A DNA stretch of 64,000 bases, taken from contig NC_092347.1 of NCBI RefSeq assembly GCF_963676685.1, positions 70,514,935-70,578,934 on the forward strand. The letters run 5' to 3'. The DNA comes from Mytilus edulis (taxonomy: Eukaryota). The notes under the pieces are model-generated. The model was not told where the DNA came from, did not search any database, and saw nothing but the letters and a program-made list of their open reading frames with translations. Shown piece by piece: positions 2,521 to 15,800 of the stretch; position 1 is the first letter of the stretch, and the number at the start of each line of letters is the position of its first letter. The position numbers were made by a program, and so were the translations under genes.

Positions 2521-3204
2521 AATCAATCAATTCATAGAACCGTTAACAGACATGTTGGCTAAAGAACCAGTTCGACCGGTTTGTTTTTGTATTTTAAATT
2601 CATGGTACACTAAGCAAATAAGAAAATATATATATATATTTTTTGGTAACTTTTATCCCGACCACATGATTTAGCTGTAACCATTGAAACAATCCGTTCG
2701 ATAAAAATGTCATGAGAGGGAAAATAACTTAAACACACATCTCTCGAAAAGAAGACAAGTAGAGATCTCTAAAATGGTTCTAATCACTACATAAAATTAT
2801 AAGCGAAACACTGTACAAAACATAGGTATGGGCTTTGATTATTGTTGAAGGCCGTACGGTGACCTATAGTTGTTAATTTCTGTGTCTCTTGTGTAGAGTT
2901 GTCTCATTGGCAATCATATCACATCTTCATTTTTAAATTATCGCATCTTTTTACTCTCTGAAATAGACAAGTGTAAGTGTTCTCGCTTGTATGTCTATTT
3001 GCAAAAGTACAGCTAATACAACTTCGTAATATGCGACATATTGTTCTGAATTCATAAGATGTAAATTGCTTCTACTTGTATTTTTTCCCTTGGTTGTATT
3101 TGTAATGTCAATAATTGCTTCATTCCATACAGTCCTCATTATTTCTGGTTGTATTAGTTTCATATTCCCATAACAGTTTAATATTATGTTATAGTTATTG
3201 ACCA

Positions 3205-3320
3205 AGAAAGTCGGTATATGGGATTTAATTTGCACAGCTCGAGTGACCCTGTTTAACCCGAACGACGAAGGAGTTCGGGTTAATGGGTCATCTCGTGCTG
3301 TGCAAATTAAAACATATACC
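3205..3320. repeat. Nested hairpin: about 38-bp inverted repeat whose loop contains a second hairpin
   Basis: tcggtatatgggatttaatttgcacagctcgagtgaccc pairs with gggtcatctcgtgctgtgcaaattaaaacatataccga. The spacer aacccgaac...gttcgggtt is itself palindromic. Confidence 0.6.
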
Positions 3321-3404
3321 GATTTGATTGGCCAATAACTGTTTTAACACATGACGTCAACAATTATTCAATCAACATGTATTGAGAATGTCCATTCTTT
3401 CAAA

Positions 3405-6400
3405 TTACTTGGAATTAGGCGAGTGATATGAGAGCCAAATTCACATTTTTAATGCACCTACCTAACACACGGCTAAATTATATATCACTGGAAAGCTAAG
3501 AATGTGTACTTTCTAAATATCCCGGTCGTCAAAAGAAATTATGGTGCATTTTTTTTTAAATCGAGGTCAAAGGTCATGGGTGCAATTTCTATTCACGGAT
3601 ACTTCCAGTAGAAAAATCGAGTCAAAACAAATACAAAAATGAAACAATTTTATAGGAATGCTGTATTACTCTTGAGAAAATATATTTCTATCATAGTGTT
3701 AATTAATTTTGGTTGATTTTAACGGTAAAGCATGTTACGTAACGTTTTCTCTCGGAGTCTTTGAAAATCAACCATTAAGTCACACAAATGTATCTGTAGT
3801 CGCCCTTGCATTATCTAAATCTTATAATACCTCCATATCATTTGATTGCACGTATTTACAAACATATATCTGCAAATTTGATATAAATAATTCGAAACAA
3901 AATATTTGAAGCAAGAAGAAAATATAACATATGACGTATCTTTAATTGTTTAGAAAGTCCCATGATGAGCTGTACATTAAAATTGAGGAAGCGTATGGTC
4001 TCCTGTTAGTTTGAAAGCCTACCAACCGCTTCAAGATCAGACAACCATAGGGCGGATTTTTTTTTATTATTGTAGTGCAATATGTTGAGTCTGGATCATA
4101 CCGCAATTTCATTTACATCACTAAATCAGATATGACAAGAGTACTAACTAACATTACTAAAATGAATAAAGTGCTACTAGTATATTTATATCAACAAATT
4201 GACAATTTTAATATAAAACATCACAAGGAAAATATGACCACTCATTGTACGTTAAACTGTGTTTGATTTTACTTTAGTCGGCCGCCGTGTATCTTGAGAT
4301 ATCTTATTAATCAAACAACACTTGACAAAGGAGTGTTCTAATTTTAAATTACGCTAGTGATGACATTCGGGCTACTTTGGCACTACGTATTACTTTTTTA
4401 TATCTTGTTTCACCGCTTCAAACAGAGGACAAGGTTATCCTAACATTGAACCTTTTATTTGGCTTTCTTATGTTAAAATCCCGTTAGCGTATAACCTAAA
4501 TGATCGAAACGTCGGACCAATGGGATGTAGGACCATTTAGGTGTCAGAATATTGCGATATCGGAATATTATAGCTTCATTTTAACTTGTAATCTCATCAT
4601 TCTTAGCGGTCAAAATGTCCATACAAAGACAACTTCCTTGGCATGGGCATATACCAGTACAGCAGAGGTTTTGCTCAAAGCGGACACAAGATCTACTATA
4701 TACTGATTGAATTAAAAATTGGAAATGGACACGAGGAATTTGTCAAAGAGACACCAACCCGTTTAAAAGGAGACAACGGCCGACGACCACCAATGGGTCA
4801 TCAATGCAGCAAGAAACTTCCAAACCCGGAGGCGTTCTTCAGCTGGCTCCTAAACAAAAATGTACTAGTTTGAAATGATTATGGACGTCATACTAAGCTT
4901 TCAGTTGAAATATACACAAGAAATTAAAACAAAAATCATACAAAAATAAAAAAGGCCAGGGGCTCCTGACTTGGGACAGGCGTAAAATTGCGGCGGGGTT
5001 AAACATGTTTTTGCAATCTCAACCCTCCCCCTGCGTGAACAGATCAAATCTTGTAGAAAGTTGGAAAACATCATACCGGACCGATATTGCCTTTTAACCA
5101 ACCAAAGTCATGCAGAGAACTTTTATTGTTTCTGTAGTTAGGTTGACATTGTCTTGGATAAAATTTTGACCCCCAGAAGAAAAATAATGCCATGTAGAAT
5201 GTATGCCCCATTTTCAATTTTTCTTATCTGTTGATCAGTCAAACTTGTTTTAATAGTTATCAAAGGTGTGTCCACAAATACGGTGCATTTGTAATGATAA
5301 ATCTAAAAAAAAAAAGAGTTAAAAAGAATAAGACAAAATTATAGAGCTACTGTATACAATATTGGATGTACCTTAGCCTTGTTGAGGCTGTATACATGTA
5401 CATTGTAACTATAAATTGACCATATATTTTTAGTATTTGTTGAAGCTGCTAATATGTTATTTAGTTTTCTCGGCGGCGATCCTCGGCATAAATTAAGTAA
5501 TTAAAGTTGTTAACCAGAATACTTCCTTGTGTACAGGCACGTCATCTTTAATCGTCGAAATGTTAGTAATAGCTCTTTACTTTCTCACTTCAAATTTTGT
5601 AGCTAATATTTAGCGATGCAAGCTCGATGGTATACAGATTTAATAGTAAAATTATCATGAGTTATTTTGTAAATCAGATCATTACGTCCACTTGTATTTT
5701 TGTCCATCTGATGAGTTAAGCCTTTTTCAACTGATTTTTATAGTTCGTTCTTATGTTGTAATGTTATACCACTGTCCCAGGTTAGGGGGAGGGTTTTGAT
5801 CCCGTTAACATGTTAACCCCGCCACATTATTTATGTATGTGCCTGTCCCAAGTCAGGAGCATGTAATTCAGTGGTTGTCGTTTGTTTATGTGTTACACAT
5901 TTGTTTTTCGTTCATTTGTTTTACATAAATAAGGCCGTTAGTTTTCTCGTTTGAATTGTTTTACATTGTCTTATCGGGACCTTTTATAGCTGACTATGCG
6001 GTATGGGCTTTGCTCATTGTTGAAGGCCGTACGGTGACCTATAGTTGTTAATGTTTGTGTCATTTTGGTCTTTTGTGGATAGTTGTCTCATTGGCAATCA
6101 TACCACATCTTCTTTTAATATTTATTGTAGGAGATATATGTATTAACACTCAATACAGCTTGAGTTTGCTACTCAGAGGATACCTTATGAAGTTGTGTAA
6201 CTTGCTTATAGGCTTTATACATTTGCAAAATATACAAACAGACAAATTAGAATGAGTTGTAGATCTACTGCCCTCGTTGATATATGAGAAGAGACTGGTC
6301 GGTAGAATTGGTACATGTAGTACAAAGTCTTTGTACAGACAAAACAGAAGCTGATAGGTTGTACTTACTTTTGAAATATTCATAGCAACTCTTATGATAT

Positions 6401-7460
6401 TTTGTATTTTCAAATGGGATGTTTTCATTTTTTTCATATTCATCAAACAGTCTGTAAACTTCATCCTTTCGTTTTCCCACTGCGGCAATATAACTGTATC
6501 TTCATTTAAGTGTTTAACTACATAGTTTCTATGTAGTAAATACATGACAGACTATGCATCTGTTGTCAATCAATGGATAGTTTTTGCTCTTTAGCATAGG
6601 AAGGGTTTCATTGTGAACTGGACTGTGAAAATTTGACAGGACTCGGAAGATTTTCTACAATTTTCCGATACGATTCCTTATTTAGAAATGGGTGAATTCC
6701 AGAACTCATAAACTATGTTTTACTTTGATTTGATCTTTATTTTCGGACGATTTTATATCTATTTAAGCTCCACTGAAGTTCAAGATAGAAATATAACCGT
6801 TTAAATATGATTTATCGTACTCTGATAGCACTATTAAGTACACGGAAATCGACTAATATATTCAGTAAAAAAACGATAACGAAATAGATAAGGGATTCCG
6901 GAAACTATAGTGATGTTACCCAACATCATAAAATTACAGAAATTCGTGATTTTAAGAAATGTTGAGATAAAGTCTTGATCTTGAATGAAAAAACGATAAC
7001 TGATGAGTGATTTGGTGTGTTCTAAAACGGATCAAGTGCTAACGCATTTAATAGAAAATTTAATTGTAGATCCGAAAAGGTCAGGATTATGAAAATTTTC
7101 GTATAAAATGTCAAATATTTAGAAGGAATGCAAAAGCATGCGGAGTTATAGTTGTAAATATTGTTTTTCATTATTTTAAGAATCTAATTCAATTAATTAT
7201 TCTGTCTAAAAGAAGAGATACGACTAATTTCTTTTGCTTGAAAAACATGTCGTATTTTTACAATTTTCAACTAATTTCTGAAATAAACGTCAATTTTACA
7301 AAAACTGCACCGTACGATTTTGTGACGACCGGGCAAAAATCAAAGTTAAATCAATATTCTTTCATTTAAAAAAGAAATTAGCCGTGTGTTAGGTGGGTGC
7401 ATTAAAGTCCTTAACTAGACGTCTTTTTCAAATATTACACTCGCCTAAATAGACATTGAT
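3405..7460. mobile_element. Candidate about 4-kb element bounded by about 150-bp inverted repeats
   Basis: 3405-3560 is the reverse complement of 7300-7460. Shared core gccgtgtgttaggt[ag]ggtgcatta, gacgaccggg and cactcgcctaa. The interior has only short ORFs plus inserted SINE-like copies. Confidence 0.4.
5690..6115 (+). repeat. SINE/MITE family C, full-length copy of about 420 bp
   Basis: Modules gtc..tgatgagttaagcc / ctgtcccaagtcaggagc / ggttaacatgtt / ctgactatgcggtatgggctttgctcattgttgaaggccgtacggtgacctatagttgttaat / ttgtggatagttgtctcattggcaatcataccacatcttc. Other copies or fragments at 2815-2935, 4900-5050(-), 13540-14130(-, two copies), 15120-15420, 16060-16090, 18600-18920, 20500-20930(-) and 28980-29220(-). 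Confidence 0.7.
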
Positions 7461-8290
7461 GAAAATTTAAGCTGGGAAGATCATGTTGATCGTATATGTA
7501 AAATTATCTCATCTAAAGTATCACTTTTATATAAAATTAAAGTATATTTGCCAATACAAACAAGGCAACTATTTTATAATGCATATATTCTACCATATAT
7601 AGACTATTGTAGTTCAGTTTGGGGAAATTTATTACAAAAAGATTCAGATAGAATCATAAAACTTCAAAAAAGAGTAGCAAGAATTATACTGGAATGCGAT
7701 ATTTCTATTCCATCTAATTTCATGTTTTCTTCTTTAAAATGGCTATCTTTTACCAAAAGAATAAAATACCAACAATCAATTCTAATGTATAAAATTGTAA
7801 ATGGGCTAACACCTGATTACTTAGCAATACTAAATATTGATGATGTGCAACGCCACAACTTACGATCTGTCTCTAATAATGATCTTTTTGTTCCAAGACC
7901 AAATACAAATTTTTATAAAAAATCTTTTCATTATTCTGCAACCAAAGTATGGAATAATTTACCACTCGAAATAAAGAAATGTCCTAATGTGGAATTATTC
8001 AAGAAACATAGTTATAATCATTTTCTTGAAAATTATATGCAAGTCAACTAATTTGTTTTCCTCTAACAAAACTATATCAAATATTGTCATTTATTACCCT
8101 TTGTATATTTCAATGATTGAATTGTGTATATACTAGTAATATATATTGTAAATTAATGTATGAATGTATGAATGTTAACTGTATGCATGTATTTTGTTTG
8201 AGGGCCTCAATGAAAATTAGACTATTTCTAATTGAGTTACCCTCTTTAAATAAAGAATTTATTATTATTATTATTATTATTATAATTTTC
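7440..8290 (+). mobile_element. Non-LTR retrotransposon (LINE, CR1/L2-like) 3' fragment: ORF2 C-terminal region plus (TTA)n tail
   Basis: The frame from about 7445 reads ...IDENLSWEDHVDRICKIISSKVSLLYKIKVYLPIQTRQLFYNAYILPYIDYCSSVWG...LQKRVARIIL..., the conserved post-RT domain of CR1-like ORF2. It ends at 8051 and is followed by the microsatellite (tta)8 at 8261-8285. Confidence 0.7.
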
Positions 8291-8325
8291 CCGCATAAAT
8301 CACATCCGCCCAACAAGACGTTGAA

Positions 8326-8577
8326 ATGGATGGATTTCATCATGAATTGTCGGAGGATGATATGATCTTATCACAAGTATTAGAAACATTGGAGGATGAA
8401 ATGGAACTGAGAAATGTAAATATAGAGGACTTTTTTGGAGAGTTTCCTAGTAATGTGATGGATGAGAATGCATCTGGAGATTTAATCAACACCTCAGCTG
8501 TTTCATTTGACCTAGGACTAGACTTAGATCTATGGTTGCAAGTTTCTTCGGAAAACGGAAAGATCCAAAATGTCAAG
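8326..8577 (+). CDS. Exon 1 of a two-exon ORF (acidic N-terminus), donor AAG|GTACGT
   Basis: ATG at 8326. The open frame ends on a complete codon at 8577, followed by the strong donor gtacgt at 8578. Confidence 0.45.
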
Positions 8578-8639
8578 GTACGTCTTTTTTTAGAATTATC
8601 TGCCACGCGCAGACCCATTATTGCATGATTTGAGGTGTG

Positions 8640-8800
8640 GACCCATAGACGGATCCAAGGGATGGAGTCCGGGGTCCCTCTTTTGTGAAAAAAAATGGTT
8701 AATTATATAGGGAATCACTGAAGCATGACCCGCGCCCCCTCCTTTTAGGTCAGTCAGCCCTCCCCCTTAAATAAAAAGTTCTGGATCTGCTACTTAGACC
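8640..8800. repeat. MITE family B copy inside the 8578-8938 intron
   Basis: ggatccaagggatggagtccggggtccc ... cccgcgccccctcc ... ctggatctgc. Confidence 0.5.
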
Positions 8801-8938
8801 CTTGATATAATCATTTGCGGAAACTTCCGACTAGTTTTATTGTTTAATTGTTCTCATCCGGAACATTCATGAAATATTTGCCACTGCCGGATTTTGCTTC
8901 TGCCATGTGTTAAATTATGTGATATTATCTTATTTTAG

Positions 8939-9099
8939 GATGAAGAACCTAAAGATCAGGAACAAGGAGTCGAATCAAGGTTTGCAGAAATGACAGACAA
9001 TGAAATTGATACACTTATTGAAGATGCTGAGAACAAAAACACAAAGAAAGCCACAAAATGGGCAGTTAATGTCTATGAAGAAAAGAACACTTGCAACTA
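8939..9099 (+). CDS. Exon 2: acceptor ttattttag|GAT, in phase with exon 1; reads ...FAEMTDNEIDTLIEDAENKNTKKATKWAVNVYEEKNTCN*
   Basis: Acceptor at 8937-8938 and continuous frame with exon 1. The NTKKATKWAVNVYEE motif resembles, from memory, the N-terminal motif of Crypton-type tyrosine recombinases or DUF3504 (KIAA1958/ZMYM-like). Confidence 0.4.
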
Positions 9100-9419
9100 G
9101 ATTGTACCAAGCAGGAGTCAGTGAGCAGATGGTAATGGATAGAACAGGTCACAGGAGTGAAAAGGCTGTTCGTACCTACAAAAGACCTGCGGATTCTATG
9201 CTAAAAGATGTCTCTAACATTTTGAATCCATCTAATAAGCAAATAAAACTTGAGGATCCCAAACCATTAACCGATACTCGTGCAATCCTTCCTGAGCAAG
9301 TTAACATTGAAAATACAGAAAATGCATTTAATGTTTCAAAACCAGAAGGAAAATATCGGGGATTGCCAAGTAACAGCTCTTTTCAAAACTGCGTGTTCAA
9401 TTTTGTAACGAAGATGTGA
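9075..9419 (+). pseudogene. +1-shifted continuation carrying a tyrosine-recombinase box-II-like segment (KKRTLATRLYQAGVSEQMVMDRTGHRSEKAVRTYKR)
   Basis: Pattern xRxTLATRLyQAGV...TGHrS...rtY matches integrase-family box II (LRHTFATRLLQAGV....LGHS......Y). It lies in a different frame from exon 2 and directly abuts the N-terminal motif, so the usual about 250 aa between them is missing. Confidence 0.45.
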
Positions 9420-10059
9420 ACCTCACAGATTTTGTTTTCAATTTTTAACACTGAATTGTTATTTAAGTTGTTTTTAAGCCGTACATAGAAATGTATGAAA
9501 AAGCGTTTTTTTTTTAGTTTTCACTGTGTCGGGTTGTGACACTGATAACTTACATATCAAGACTATAATAGGAAGATGTCGATGATACTTTATTTTCATT
9601 TTTTTTTTAATGACAATTTTTTTTATATTGATGGAAAAATAATTTTAGTAAATTAACCTGTGTTTTTTTTTTTTATCTTATTTAGACTTGTATTGTGTTG
9701 ATTGTAATACTACTACATTTGTTTTGTATGTTTTCTATCCTGATGTTTTATCAAGGGACTGATTTTTATGTCCGAGTATAGATACATGTATCCACTTGAT
9801 ATTTCTTACAAAATGGAGAAAAACAAATATTTGTAGTAGCAATGGAATCAACAAATGCAAAGTACTGTACAATAAACATCTGTCAAGGACGTGAAGTTCA
9901 CGTGACCTGTGCAATTATTGAAGTAGTTAATGCACACCTGACCCGTGCATTATCCAGATTATACCACAGTAAGATCAAAGGAATTTTGCCTCTGTCATGT
10001 GTTAATTTTGTCATATCTCTATTAACTGTAGTAAGTAAATAATATGCGAGATATATCAA

Positions 10060-10960
10060 AGGACCATTCAAACTCACAAGTAGAACTTTTAAAACCGACA
10101 ACGCCATGGCTAAAAAAGAAAAAGACAAACAGCAAACTACAAAACACAAAACACAACATAGAAAACTAAAGACTGAGCAAAACGAACCCAAACAAAAACT
10201 GGGGGGTGATCTCAGGTGCTCCGAATTGGTAAGCAAGTCCTGCTCCACAAGTAAGTGTCATATTTCAATAAAAGACTTATTAAAAAGAGATATAGTTACG
10301 ATACTGTTGTCAAGTCATAAAAGATGGCATACTTGACTTTAATATTGATTCACTTATAGGGCTTTGCATCGGAAATAAACACATTTATTCTAAAACCAGT
10401 TGTTGGCATGATACGGGTTATCATCATTGTTCTTCTCAAATGAAAAATCATGCATGTAATGATGGTATGATGCATATTCATATGGTGAAGACATAATCTT
10501 TCAATCAGTTTGGGGTCTGGAGCTGGCATGTCAGTAACTGCTAGAAGTCCTTAGTGAAATTATGTATCATTGTCAGTTTGTTTAGTTTCTTTTGTTACCT
10601 TGTTACCTATTCTGACATCGGACTCGGACTTCTTGAAACTGAGTTATACTGTGCGTTTGTTTAGAGGGAGGGTTAAGATCTTAAAAAAACATGTTTAACC
10701 CCGCCGCATGTTTGCGCCTGTCCCACGTCTTTGTTAGTCTTGTGTGATTTTGATTTTAGTTTCTTTTATATATTTCGGAGAAAAGAATGGCGTCCATTAC
10801 CACTGAACTAAAACACATTTTTGTTTAGGGGCCAGCTGAAGCACGCCTCCGGGTGCTGGATTTTCTCACTGTATTGAAGACCCATTGGTGGCCATCGGCT
10901 GTTTTCTCCTCTTTGGTAGGGTTATTGTTTCTTTGACATATCCCCCTTTCCCATTGGGTG
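10060..10960. repeat. Composite interspersed repeat: 10060-10260 is the reverse complement of 39200-39420; 10280-10960 is homologous to 33810-34560 (the tail region following the Penelope-like RT)
   Basis: Long co-linear matches, e.g. gatatagttacgatactgttgtcaagtcat..., ggccagctgaag[cg]acgcctccgggtgc and gggagggtt[ag]agatct...catgtttaac[ca]c[cg]ccgcat. Confidence 0.6.
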
Positions 10961-12749: not shown

Positions 12750-12870
12750 TAGACAGTGGTGGATCCAGAACTTGTCCTAAGGGGGGGCCCGCTCCAGTCA
12801 TACATCAATGATTCCCTATATAATCAACCAAATTTTTCCAACGAAAGGGCCCCCTCCCCTTGATCCGCCT
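12750..12870. repeat. MITE family B copy
   Basis: gtggtggatccagaacttgtcc...ggggggcccgctcc...gggccccctcccc...gatccgcc. Confidence 0.5.
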
Positions 12871-15800
12871 ATGCTAGAAGTTTTAAAACCACCCAATTAG
12901 GACATGTTGTTTATAGTCTTTATATGGCTAACGATGTGTGCATCTAACCACTTGACCAGTTGACAACTTGCATATATATTTGATTGCACATTTATTATCA
13001 AGTTCGACTGAATTTTATTTAATTGCTTTTTAATCATGTCAGATTTGAAAGAAATACATGTGAAGTATATGTAACAAATCCTTTTGATTCAAAACAGAAT
13101 GTTAAAAGACATGTAAAGGAACGTGATGATCAATAAGTTGGTAAGCTTTAATTAGTTGGAAAAAAAGTTATAAAATATAATAAAATGTATAATAATGTAC
13201 AATAAATTTGTCAAATTTGATACTCATTCACTCATTGTGAAAGGCATGCATATAATCATTCGGCCAAAAATAATGAAATCAAAAGTATGATTGAATATTT
13301 TTATAATAAAATTATGTGTACATGTGTTAATGACAGTGCTAGTGGGATGTGTATCACCAGAACAATAGTCAGAACTTCTGTGTTGGTGCCATGCTTTAGG
13401 GGCATAAAAAGTTACATTAGTCCGTCAGTCCCGAACGTCATTAAAAACTGGTTCCGCTCTCCTAACTTTAGTTTGCCTCAACCATATACTACAAAACTTA
13501 TACACAATATATAAATGAAGCTGGTGCATGTGTGCCAATGAGAACTCTCCACAAGAGACTAAATGACACATAAATTAACAATTATACAATGTAGCCTAGG
13601 TCACCACACGGTCTTCAACAATTAGCAAGGTTCATACCGCAGTCAGCTATTAAAGGCACCGACATGACAATGTAAAACAATTCAAACGAGAAAACAAACG
13701 GTCTAATTTATGTACAAATAATAAACGAAAAATAAGATAGGCACGTGCATATAAAATAAGGCGAGGTTAAACATGTTAGCGGGATCCAAACCTCCCCCCC
13801 CCCTTATTTGGCATGAGTGCCAATAAGAACTCTACACAAAAGACCAAATGACACAAACACTAACACCTATAGGTCATATACAGCTTTCAACAATGAGCAA
13901 AGTCAATACCGCATATAGTCAGCAATAAAAGGCACTGAAATGACATTGTAAAACAATATTCAAACGAGAAAATAAACGAACAAATTTATGTACAAAAAAT
14001 GAACGAAAAACAAGTATGTAGCACATAAAAAACGACATTCATTGAATTACAGGCTCCTGACTTACCACAGGCACATACATAACGAATAAGGCGGGGTTGA
14101 ACATGTAAGGGGGATCCCTACCTCAACACAAAATCAAATTTGAAATTTTTAAGTGTCACTTTTACTGTTCAAGAGTTATCATGTCCCTTTAAAAACATAA
14201 GAAGTGTTGACTCTTTCGTTTCCTTTCTCTTAAATAAGTCTGACTCAATCAAATGTTAGGAACCTTATACGCGATTCACATTACCCCATAACACAGATCT
14301 ATTAAGTTCGATATTGGGTCCCGATGGCCTCACTGTTCATGAGTTTTTAGATGTAAAAAGTTGTGGTACGAGTACCAATGATAAAAATGTCAACCCGGAG
14401 CCTTAAGATAGGAAAACTGCTAAATCTATTGTTTCCGTTCTTTAACTTTAATTTGCTTCAACCAATTGCTTTGAAACTTATTGACAATGCTTATGGTCAC
14501 AAAACGGTCAAATAAAGGCGAATCCTGCATCTATATGTGGAAGTTTACTAATTTTTTTCACCAGCAGGGGCATCTGTGGTAAATGGACATATTCTACATT
14601 TAATTCAGTAATCAGCTTATTTACTTCCATTGAATTCTTCTTTTAATAGACTTAACTTGCACATATTTTTTTTCAGGATCTCGGTGCACTTTGGTAACAG
14701 ACAGTGATATTTCAAGTTAAATGTGATCAACTTAACAAAGTGTTTCACTAAATTGAGCTCTCTGTCTAAGTGTACTTTAAAGGTTTTTAGCATTGAGTTC
14801 AGTTTATTGATATGCGTATACCTTCTGGGTGAATTTTTATGATGTAAAAGCAGACTATCCATACCTACATGTCCATGAAATGAAATCTAAGGTAAAATGA
14901 ATGAAACCTTTTTGCATTATTTATCACAACTGGCAGCACACGATGCTACTGAAGCAGAAAATTTGCTTACTTGATATTCTCGAAAATTAAACGATTTAGT
15001 TTCCTCTTAACCAAACATTCTTAAAAATTGAGAATGGGAATGTGGAACTGTGTAAAAGATACAGTTACCATGTCAAAAGAGCAGAAAGCAGTCAACGGCC
15101 TCTAATGGGTCCTCATAGCTGACTATGCGGTATGGGCTTTGCTCATTGTTGAAGGCCGTACGGTACGGTGACCTATAGTTGTTAATGTCTGTGTCATTTT
15201 GGTCTTTTGTGGATAGTTGTCTCATAGGCAATCATACCACATCTTCTTTTTAATATCTTCAACAAAGCGCGAGAAAATCCCTCGCCCAGAGGCGGGCTTC
15301 AGATGGCCCTTAACAAAATGTGTACCAGTTCAAACTCCAAATCATAAAATAAACTTACAATTAAAAACATACAAGACTAACAAAAACCAGAGACTCCTGA
15401 CTTGACGTCAAGGTAATCTAAACGGTAGGATTAGACATTAAAACACTAAAAACTAGGGTTAACCATTAATTTTTTACCCAACCATATGATAGTACTATGG
15501 TAAACTTATAGAAACACATGATACAGTCATAAACTTATTGAATATTTGCAATAGTACGTCCAGAACAATACAAGACCGAGTTGTAAACAAATGAAAGTAA
15601 TGATACATACGAATTTTTAATCCCAATGCACAAATAAGGAACCGTAGTTTTCATTCAATTTATTTATCTAAAATGTACACTTGGGTTAAACAATGGCAAT
15701 TAACACTGTATATTTATATAAACGATCAATCTTGTAAATAAATAAAGGAGATATTAAGTCTACTGTATGTTTTTAAGCTTGTTTGATTTTTGGGATTTTC

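Follow-up and report, generated by a model that had tools for sequence, protein, structure and literature searches.

The 64,000-nucleotide stretch of Mytilus edulis DNA analyzed here (the window) harbors what is probably a decaying relic of a Crypton-type tyrosine recombinase element, that is, a non-autonomous copy that carries an internal deletion and is disrupted by a LINE. Two segments of the window (3185-3365 and 8284-10005) are best explained, as a whole, as a single ~1.9-kb copy of an element that is dispersed in Mytilus, and from the sequence comparisons we assign this reading a probability of roughly 0.8. At most, the locus can give rise to an acidic N-terminal stub of 137 aa without a catalytic residue. 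Taken alone it is a dead transposon copy of little importance, and its main practical value lies in Mytilus repeat annotation. The features of the copy and the domains of the reconstructed full-length protein are collected in Table 1.

Table 1. Features of the element copy, its nested insertions and the reconstructed full-length protein
Feature	Position	Strand	Details
Element 5′ terminal segment (~180 bp)	3185-3365	+	98.9% identity (window 3185-3361) to L003 9782-9958
Motifs in 5′ terminal segment	3327-3336; 3344-3355; 3352-3359	+	ATTGGCCAAT; TTAACACATGAC (inverted copy of 3′ terminus); TGACGTCA
Nested insertion splitting the element	3366-8283	+	4.9 kb; LINE 3′ fragment interrupted by TIR element
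5′-truncated LINE 3′ fragment	3366-3418 and 7450-8283		(TTA)n tail; 4-bp duplication AATT at 3362-3365 and 8284-8287
TIR element in LINE (~4.0 kb)	3419-7449		10-bp perfect TIRs TAGGCGAGTG...CACTCGCCTA; AAT flanks
Leader, LINE insertion point to ATG	8284-8325	+	Alignable in all copies
Exon 1	8326-8577	+	Encodes 84 acidic residues; 94% identity in tblastn with P0004 residues 1-84
Intron (GT..AG)	8578-8938	+	Common to all Mytilus copies
Exon 2, truncated, original frame	8939-9102	+	...NTKKATKWAVNVYE, then read-through EKNTCN and stop
Deletion junction	9080-9081	+	2-bp microhomology GA; ~800 bp of exon 2 gone
Recombinase C-terminal 112 codons, +1 frame	9081-9419	+	K-R-T...TGH...Y, tail ending NCVFNFVTKM and stop; tblastn with P0002 and P0026
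3′ non-coding part	9420-10005	+	AATAAA at 9871; 3′ terminus ...GGAATTTTGCCTCTGTCATGTGTTAA (9980-10005)
QRICH1 in 510-aa reconstruction	residues 143-221		33.5 bits; above Pfam cut-off
DUF3504 in 510-aa reconstruction	residues 237-360		E 5.5e-18, 66 bits; above Pfam cut-off
Phage_integrase in 510-aa reconstruction	residues 376-436		29.3 bits; above Pfam cut-off

Extent of the element and the insertions within it

Homology of the element body between the window and the other copies stops at 8284, directly after a (TTA)n run (8259-8287); three of the other copies (L002, L003 and L004) continue for ~180 bp further. In these same loci the 5′ terminal segment is contiguous with the body and inter-copy homology begins there, and the uninterrupted sequence CAACAATTTTCCCG exists in L002 and L003. 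This comparison indicates that the LINE is an insertion inside the element and not a mere neighbor, with the 5′ terminal 180 bp of the element left 4.9 kb upstream. The original prediction had observed that the ORF begins just after the (TTA)n tail of a LINE fragment, and the ATG indeed lies 42 bp beyond that tail. The 5′ segment includes a ~160-nt imperfect palindrome (3187-3348) with a predicted DNA fold of -53.7 kcal/mol (z -13.7), and the hairpin is retained in the diverged copy L001 (z -7.1); an Rfam scan of 3000-10400 gave no match. This terminal piece may be a promoter region, and perhaps part of a recombination site.

The opposite end is equally discrete, with every copy ending at ...GCCTCTGTCATGTGTTAA (window 10005), beyond which the DNA differs. 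Six copies have common 5′ and 3′ limits, the latter at 10005/10006, and all of them have different flanks. No TIR was found between the element ends, and neither a Helitron nor a TIR element fits these ends, so both were rejected as carrier. The bases (T)GTTA adjoin both ends, and in three of five copies the flanking bases are AAT-like; in a sample of five without an empty site, this is indistinguishable from chance.

The insert that splits the element is itself composite. Homology search and tblastn established the identity of the LINE, whose reading frame (..IENVHSFKLLGI / DIDENLSWEDHV..) resumes on the far side of the inner insert, and an ORF at 7548-8051 (167 aa) corresponds to a retroelement C-terminal region with a relative (P0060) carrying RVT_1. 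A Pfam search of one frame of 3362-8283 returned nothing. Small dispersed repeats are scattered within the inner ~4.0-kb insert. A single 4.9-kb LINE was rejected as the explanation of the insert, with only ~890 bp belonging to the LINE and the remainder being the nested TIR element.

The intron of the element carries two kinds of inserted or duplicated sequence. As originally proposed, it contains a MITE-like unit of ~150 bp (about 8643-8790) with ends GGATCCA...TGGATC, and a diverged copy of this unit is located on the opposite strand at ~12755-12880 of the window. All Mytilus copies carry this intron together with its MITE, so the MITE is older than the spread of the family; in L004 it is tandemly duplicated. 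The Ostrea copy has no intron at the corresponding position. Further downstream in the intron (8889-8913), a 25-nt copy of the element 3′ terminus (9980-10005) is found in all five copies, and its similarity stops exactly at ...TGTTAA, the limit of inter-copy homology. It is followed directly by ATTATGTGATATT (8914-8926), which is identical at 11 of 13 positions to the element start (3183-3195); equally good matches to this 13-nt start occur at only 3e-5 of window positions. A third, 12-nt copy of the 3′ terminus is present in inverted orientation in the 5′ segment (TTAACACATGAC, 3344-3355). The head-to-tail junction of a circularized element would read ...GCCTCTGTCATGTGTTAA joined to A(T/A)TATGTTATAGTTATTG, and the intronic site resembles a copy of this junction, which a circular intermediate would carry. 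The site may serve in recombination, or it may be left over from an ancient tandem arrangement.

The truncated gene and its full-length relatives

The splice of the two exons, one of the claims in the original prediction, is supported by the donor AAG/GTACGT (8577/8578) and the acceptor TTATTTTAG/GATGAAG (8938/8939). The spliced ORF (8326-8577 and 8939-9099, stop at 9100-9102) encodes 137 aa with the C-terminal end ...NTKKATKWAVNVYEEKNTCN, and this product is 100% identical to RefSeq model XP_071169086.1 (P0039, ‘uncharacterized protein’, M. edulis, 100.08-Mb record), including the translation of exon 1. The public annotation pipeline thus picked the same splice.

Profile searches with both frames, as the original prediction had suggested, gave a match for only one of them. 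The 137-aa stub alone hit no credible Pfam family, with QRICH1 absent even at E up to 10. Beyond the junction, the +1 frame reads MKKRTLATRLYQAGVSEQMVMDRTGHRSEKAVRTYKR... until the stop at 9417-9419 and matches positions 134-170 of 172 in Phage_integrase (PF00589) with E 2.5e-4, in agreement with the predicted box II of a tyrosine recombinase. This 37-residue piece scores 21.3 bits, short of the family (gathering) cut-off (27.1 bits), which is to be expected of a fragment.

A conceptual fusion of the two frames retrieved 32 relatives, nearly all from Mytilus and named KIAA1958-like, DUF3504, QRICH1-like or Tyr-recombinase-domain, plus one intact 415-aa protein from Ostrea edulis among them. 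Best E-values reach 1e-142 (Mytilus proteins), so the similarity is not due to chance. The proposed Crypton- or KIAA1958-like nature of the N-terminal motif is borne out by full-length paralogues that are 94-97% identical to it and carry PF25561 and PF12012; this membership rests on these near-identical paralogues and on a stretch of 42% identity with the Ostrea protein. By joining overlapping Mytilus models we reconstructed a 510-aa protein, in which the anticipated recombinase and DUF3504 similarities are both present (Table 1) and zf-MYM, BTB or other extra host domains are absent in the Pfam search. A PDB sequence search with the family profile matched a single entry, the solved human QRICH1 structure (9hjt, E 2.6e-8), and no classical recombinase. 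Scanning all of 1.8 billion cluster representatives yielded 13 555 relatives at E ≤ 1e-3; these represent the large Crypton/DUF3504 superfamily. The full-length element is ~2.7 kb long and its sole gene is the two-exon recombinase gene, with no RT, RNase H or DDE transposase. Neither an intact recombinase ORF nor an autonomous source was identified in the five Mytilus loci read at the DNA level (L001-L005).

Comparison with these relatives also defined the part that is missing from the window. At the DNA level, window 8299-9081 corresponds to L001 9974-10754 and window 9081-10005 to L001 11553-12485, leaving a gap of 799 bp in the alignment. We describe the deletion as ~800 bp because L001 has a 1-nt frameshift within the interval missing from the window and the observed frame change needs a loss of 3n+2. 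In the full-length gene, exon 2 is one long exon, so the loss occurred within it. It removed residues 132-398 (~267 residues) of the reconstruction, close to the 250 aa or so estimated originally, and with them the QRICH1-like and the entire DUF3504 parts. The complete core for DNA binding and catalysis is thereby gone, with Arg-I, the Lys of the active site and His-II. The last 112 codons remain out of frame in +1 after the junction, as predicted, and keep K-R-T...TGH...Y with the Arg-II position, His-III and the Tyr nucleophile. In the parental sequences (L001, L002, L004 and L005), the left breakpoint is ...TATGAAGA/CTGG and the right one ...CTCGGG/GAAAAGAACAC, and the window reads TATGAAGAAAAGAACAC; neither parental breakpoint (GA/CTGG and GGG/GAAAAG) has GT/AG splice signals.

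The original prediction had also pointed to R/H positions altered to K/R in box II. This alteration is seen, and it is inherited. In an ungapped BLASTP alignment (pair E 3e-5) to the Cre C-terminus, the mussel residues corresponding to H289, R292, W315 and Y324 are H, K, H and Y. His-II (NHSG), His-III (TGH) and Tyr (VRTY) of the family are supported by the Cre alignment, and Arg-I (GLRGRDEH) was recognized from its motif by eye. The canonical HxxR-H is HSG-K-R in the mussel family, and HSGKRT is common to Mytilus, Ostrea and Crassostrea with its K at the Cre R292 position. Among the 146 new family representatives within the top 150 hits, clear box-II motifs carry K in 9 cases and R in 17. The K at catalytic Arg-II (HSGK) is a trait of the lineage, one that oysters share, and not decay of the window copy. 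As the family consensus has K, not R, at this position, it lacks the complete R-H-R-Y tetrad and the enzyme activity of the K-bearing recombinase is unproven.

Dispersal of the deleted form and alternative explanations

The C-terminal tail NVYEEKNTCN followed by a stop, which results from the deletion junction, is found in seven M. edulis RefSeq models (P0005, P0033, P0034, P0035, P0036, P0037 and P0039), and in an eighth (P0001) the other frame runs through this junction. The eight models are eight different sequences located on five chromosome-scale records (88.3, 90.6, 93.9, 100.1 and 107.0 Mb). The resulting count of at least seven other M. edulis models with the junction was drawn from annotated protein models, and the comparison of copies at the DNA level used GenBank loci L001-L005. 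The tail also occurs in Mytilus galloprovincialis (P0015), whose locus L003 aligns to window 8284-10006 with 98% identity over 1733 columns; homology ends at both element ends and the flanks are unrelated. The same junction at many loci with unrelated flanks is therefore the behavior of a non-autonomous element, and transposition is inferred because the ends are discrete and the flanks differ. The deletion is thus a trait of a sub-family, not private to the window locus, and the copy is probably a member of a propagated non-autonomous element. Other deletions are present in the family. Another sub-family is defined by the junction GNHSSESFFLNKL, common to P0007 (a cluster with 14 members) and P0010, and further, different internal deletions occur in P0003, P0050 and P0055. 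Such varied internal deletions are the pattern of a transposon family yielding non-autonomous derivatives that multiply.

The architecture of the family lends itself to a bolder reading, which we offer tentatively and consider unlikely. The copies may belong to a CryptonA lineage that is still mobile, with a 5′ hairpin, a natural Lys at Arg-II and an intronic copy of the circle junction. The junction copy and the repeated CATGTGTTAA would then be binding or crossover sites of the recombinase, and the sub-family with the ~800-bp deletion would be the trans-mobilized form. If true, such an architecture is undescribed for animal Cryptons.

The names of the relatives (KIAA1958-like or QRICH1-like) recall a domesticated host family, of which the locus might be a pseudogene with a deletion spread by segmental or tandem duplication. 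The replacement of Arg-II by K as a family trait, the intron and promoter-like motifs in the gene, and the location of four junction-bearing models on one chromosome would be consistent with this origin. We nevertheless find it improbable, given that six copies share two exact end points with unrelated flanks and that copies are full of differing deletions and frameshifts. The family keeps Tyr, His-II, His-III and Arg-I, with only Arg-II changed, whereas the domesticated DUF3504 genes (KIAA1958, QRICH1, ZMYM2-4/WOC and KCTD1) have all lost Tyr and the second Arg, and usually His too (PMC3212892). The extra domains of host genes (zf-MYM, BTB) are likewise missing. In place of conserved low-copy orthologues under purifying selection, we found many defective paralogues with divergence at a neutral level.

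It is more improbable still that the 137-aa stub is functional, for example as a piece of the recombinase that controls or blocks the family, much as truncated transposases can act as repressors, and that is maintained at several loci. The ORF is open in the window copy and in at least six other models with the same stop, and the RefSeq annotation is protein-coding. Against this, divergence between the window and L003 is uniform (1.6-2.6%) across exons, intron, recombinase remnant and 3′ non-coding DNA, so that coding sequence diverges as much as the rest. Coding changes comprise 4 non-synonymous and 2 synonymous differences, and exon 1 of L003 is frameshifted. The stub has no Pfam domain, and in the window 4.9 kb of inserted DNA separates its leader from the upstream region. 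At the level of sequence divergence there is no sign of selection on the stub.

An artefact, be it an assembly error, exon skipping or the retrocopying of an mRNA that had been aberrantly spliced, has only the clean juxtaposition in its favor and can practically be dismissed: the same junction in independent assemblies of two species rejects an assembly artefact, and the retained intron 1 and the parental breakpoints without GT/AG signals reject a retrocopy or exon skipping.

With the locus read as a relic of a transposed, internally deleted element, its history may be outlined as follows. An ancestor of the window copy would have lost ~800 bp in exon 2, its ends being rejoined at the 2-bp microhomology GA, which suggests end-joining or abortive gap repair. 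The deleted element would have retained both termini and then been amplified, presumably by enzyme-encoding relatives that excised and integrated it in trans via a circular intermediate, as Crypton biology would suggest. In the window copy, the insertion point of a 5′-truncated LINE lies 42 bp ahead of the ATG, and this LINE was in turn entered later by a ~4-kb TIR transposon. These insertions separated the ORF from the 5′ terminal hairpin and the promoter-like segment.

Comparison with known systems

Domesticated DUF3504 genes (KIAA1958, QRICH1, ZMYM2/3/4, WOC and KCTD1) share the QRICH1-like and DUF3504 domains with the mussel family. They are conserved, essentially single-copy and often fused to other domains, whereas the mussel family is multi-copy, dispersed and decaying, and keeps the Tyr, both His and Arg-I. 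The internal site in the mussel intron, which joins a copy of the 3′ end to the 5′ end (8889-8926 versus 9980-10005 and 3183-3195), recalls DIRS and Ngaro elements with their internal complementary region or split direct repeats. In contrast to these, the mussel element has no reverse transcriptase, RNase H or methyltransferase, and its repeats are only ~25 and 13 nt long and located in a mid-element intron; we take the likeness to be one of layout only. A parallel in behavior may be drawn with Ac/Ds derivatives, in which an internal deletion at microhomology leaves both termini and the defective form is amplified in trans, the latter being presumed for the mussel. The enzyme of the mussel family is a tyrosine recombinase and not a DDE transposase, and the element seems to lack TIRs and a fixed target duplication.

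Previous studies have described CryptonA in animals including a mollusc (Lottia), with DUF3504 derived from the recombinase of these elements (Kojima & Jurka 2011, PMC3212892), and a 2026 paper extended DUF3504-encoding CryptonA elements to fungi (PMC13465315). Glomhopper, a CryptonA element of Glomeromycota, resembles the mussel family in its DUF3504-type recombinase with catalytic His and Tyr kept, and in that most copies are truncated or intron-bearing and located among other repeats. It differs in being fungal, in that its intron copies are deemed a less active class, and in that a terminal hairpin is unreported (PMC13465315).

The mussel family is best filed as Crypton-like (CryptonA/DUF3504 type) and not as a domesticated gene, with a reservation because Arg-II fails the strict R-H-R-Y signature and the five loci hold no intact copy. 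Unlike CryptonA, it has K at Arg-II (HSGK), a ~160-nt hairpin at its start, an intron in which a MITE and a 3′-terminus copy are located, and no intact autonomous copy among those five. The layout of the intronic head-to-tail junction has not been reported for animal Cryptons, and together with the ends and the hairpin this junction-like site provides defined candidates for recombinase binding or circle formation. A practical consequence concerns annotation: one deleted Crypton-like sub-family appears to account for at least eight RefSeq models of M. edulis (125-243 aa) that are now called ‘uncharacterized protein’ and call for repeat masking. Bivalve Cryptons have been tallied by repeat-maskers but not described, and the present family offers a worked example of a tyrosine-recombinase transposon that yields a propagating non-autonomous derivative in a bivalve.

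CryptonA and the mussel element are both small, with a single DUF3504-type tyrosine recombinase gene and no reverse transcriptase. Animal Cryptons are described as lacking terminal repeats (PMC3212892), and the mussel element, too, seems to have no terminal inverted or long direct repeats. In medaka (CryptonA-1_OL with CryptonA-1N1/1N2_OL) and Rhodnius (CryptonI-1N1_RPro), non-autonomous derivatives outnumber the autonomous copies (PMC3212892), and in the mussel, too, internally deleted derivatives retain both ends and outnumber complete copies.

Terminal structures of the Crypton-like element

The element begins with an imperfect palindrome of ~160 nt that is predicted to fold into a DNA hairpin of -53.7 kcal/mol (z -13.7), and this structure is retained in a copy of the element of only 80% identity. 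Downstream of the hairpin lie ATTGGCCAAT and TGACGTCA, and the terminal motif recurs just 3' of the hairpin as a 12-nt copy in inverted orientation. The palindrome may act as a promoter or as a recombination site. A 25-nt copy of the 3' terminus also occurs within the intron of the element, in all copies, and is directly adjoined by 13 nt that match the 5' start of the element at 11 of 13 positions. With a 3'-terminal sequence thus abutting one similar to the 5' start, the intronic site looks like an internal copy of the element's head-to-tail (circle) junction.

Features of the Crypton-like element and associated repeats
Feature	Window position	Strand
Element 5' start (matched by intronic 13 nt)	3183-3195	
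5' terminal palindrome	3187-3348	
Inverted 12-nt terminal motif	3344-3355	
LINE 3' fragment	3366-3418 + 7450-8283	
Element with terminal inverted repeats	3419-7449	
MITE-like repeat, intronic	8643-8790	
Intronic copy of 3' terminus	8889-8913	
Intronic junction-like site	8889-8926	
Element 3' terminus	9980-10005	
MITE-like repeat, second copy	~12755-12880	-
Short dispersed repeats	4699-5032, 5708-6127, 10047-10252	

Nested and dispersed repeats

Inside the Crypton-like element sits a 5'-truncated LINE fragment of ~890 bp, with AATT duplicated at either side, which retains an open terminal ORF of 167 aa and a (TTA)n tail. This fragment is itself interrupted by a ~4.0-kb element flanked by AAT, whose terminal inverted repeats (TAGGCGAGTG / CACTCGCCTA) are 10 bp long and perfect and whose subterminal inverted repeats, of ~120 bp, are diverged. 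As its + strand contains no ORF >90 aa, this ~4.0-kb element is probably a DNA transposon of the non-autonomous type. The intron of the Crypton-like element holds a MITE-like repeat of ~150 bp with GGATCCA-type ends; the second copy in the window is diverged, and in the intron of the copy at another Mytilus locus, L004, the repeat is present as a tandem duplicate (L004 10253-10779). Short dispersed repeats, 70-94% identical, occur in many copies throughout the window and the Mytilus loci examined, one of them 40 bp 3' of the element in the window and a few hundred bp 5' of it in L004 and a further locus, L002.

Recombinase remnants and box-II variants

Five Mytilus gene models (P0016, P0018, P0020, P0023 and P0024, annotated as TDC-1, LBP and others) are chimeric, beginning with a C-terminal remnant of the recombinase (MIMDRTGHRSEKAVRTYKR...) and continuing into adjacent exons of the host. 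Such chimeras are likely an artefact that the Crypton-like repeat introduced into the annotation. Among the closest family representatives (P0064-P0203), about one-third of the recognisable box-II motifs have Lys at the position of the second catalytic Arg (HSGK, HSIK or HSLK), with the His and Tyr retained. Lys at this position may represent natural variation of the active site in the Crypton lineage to which the element belongs.
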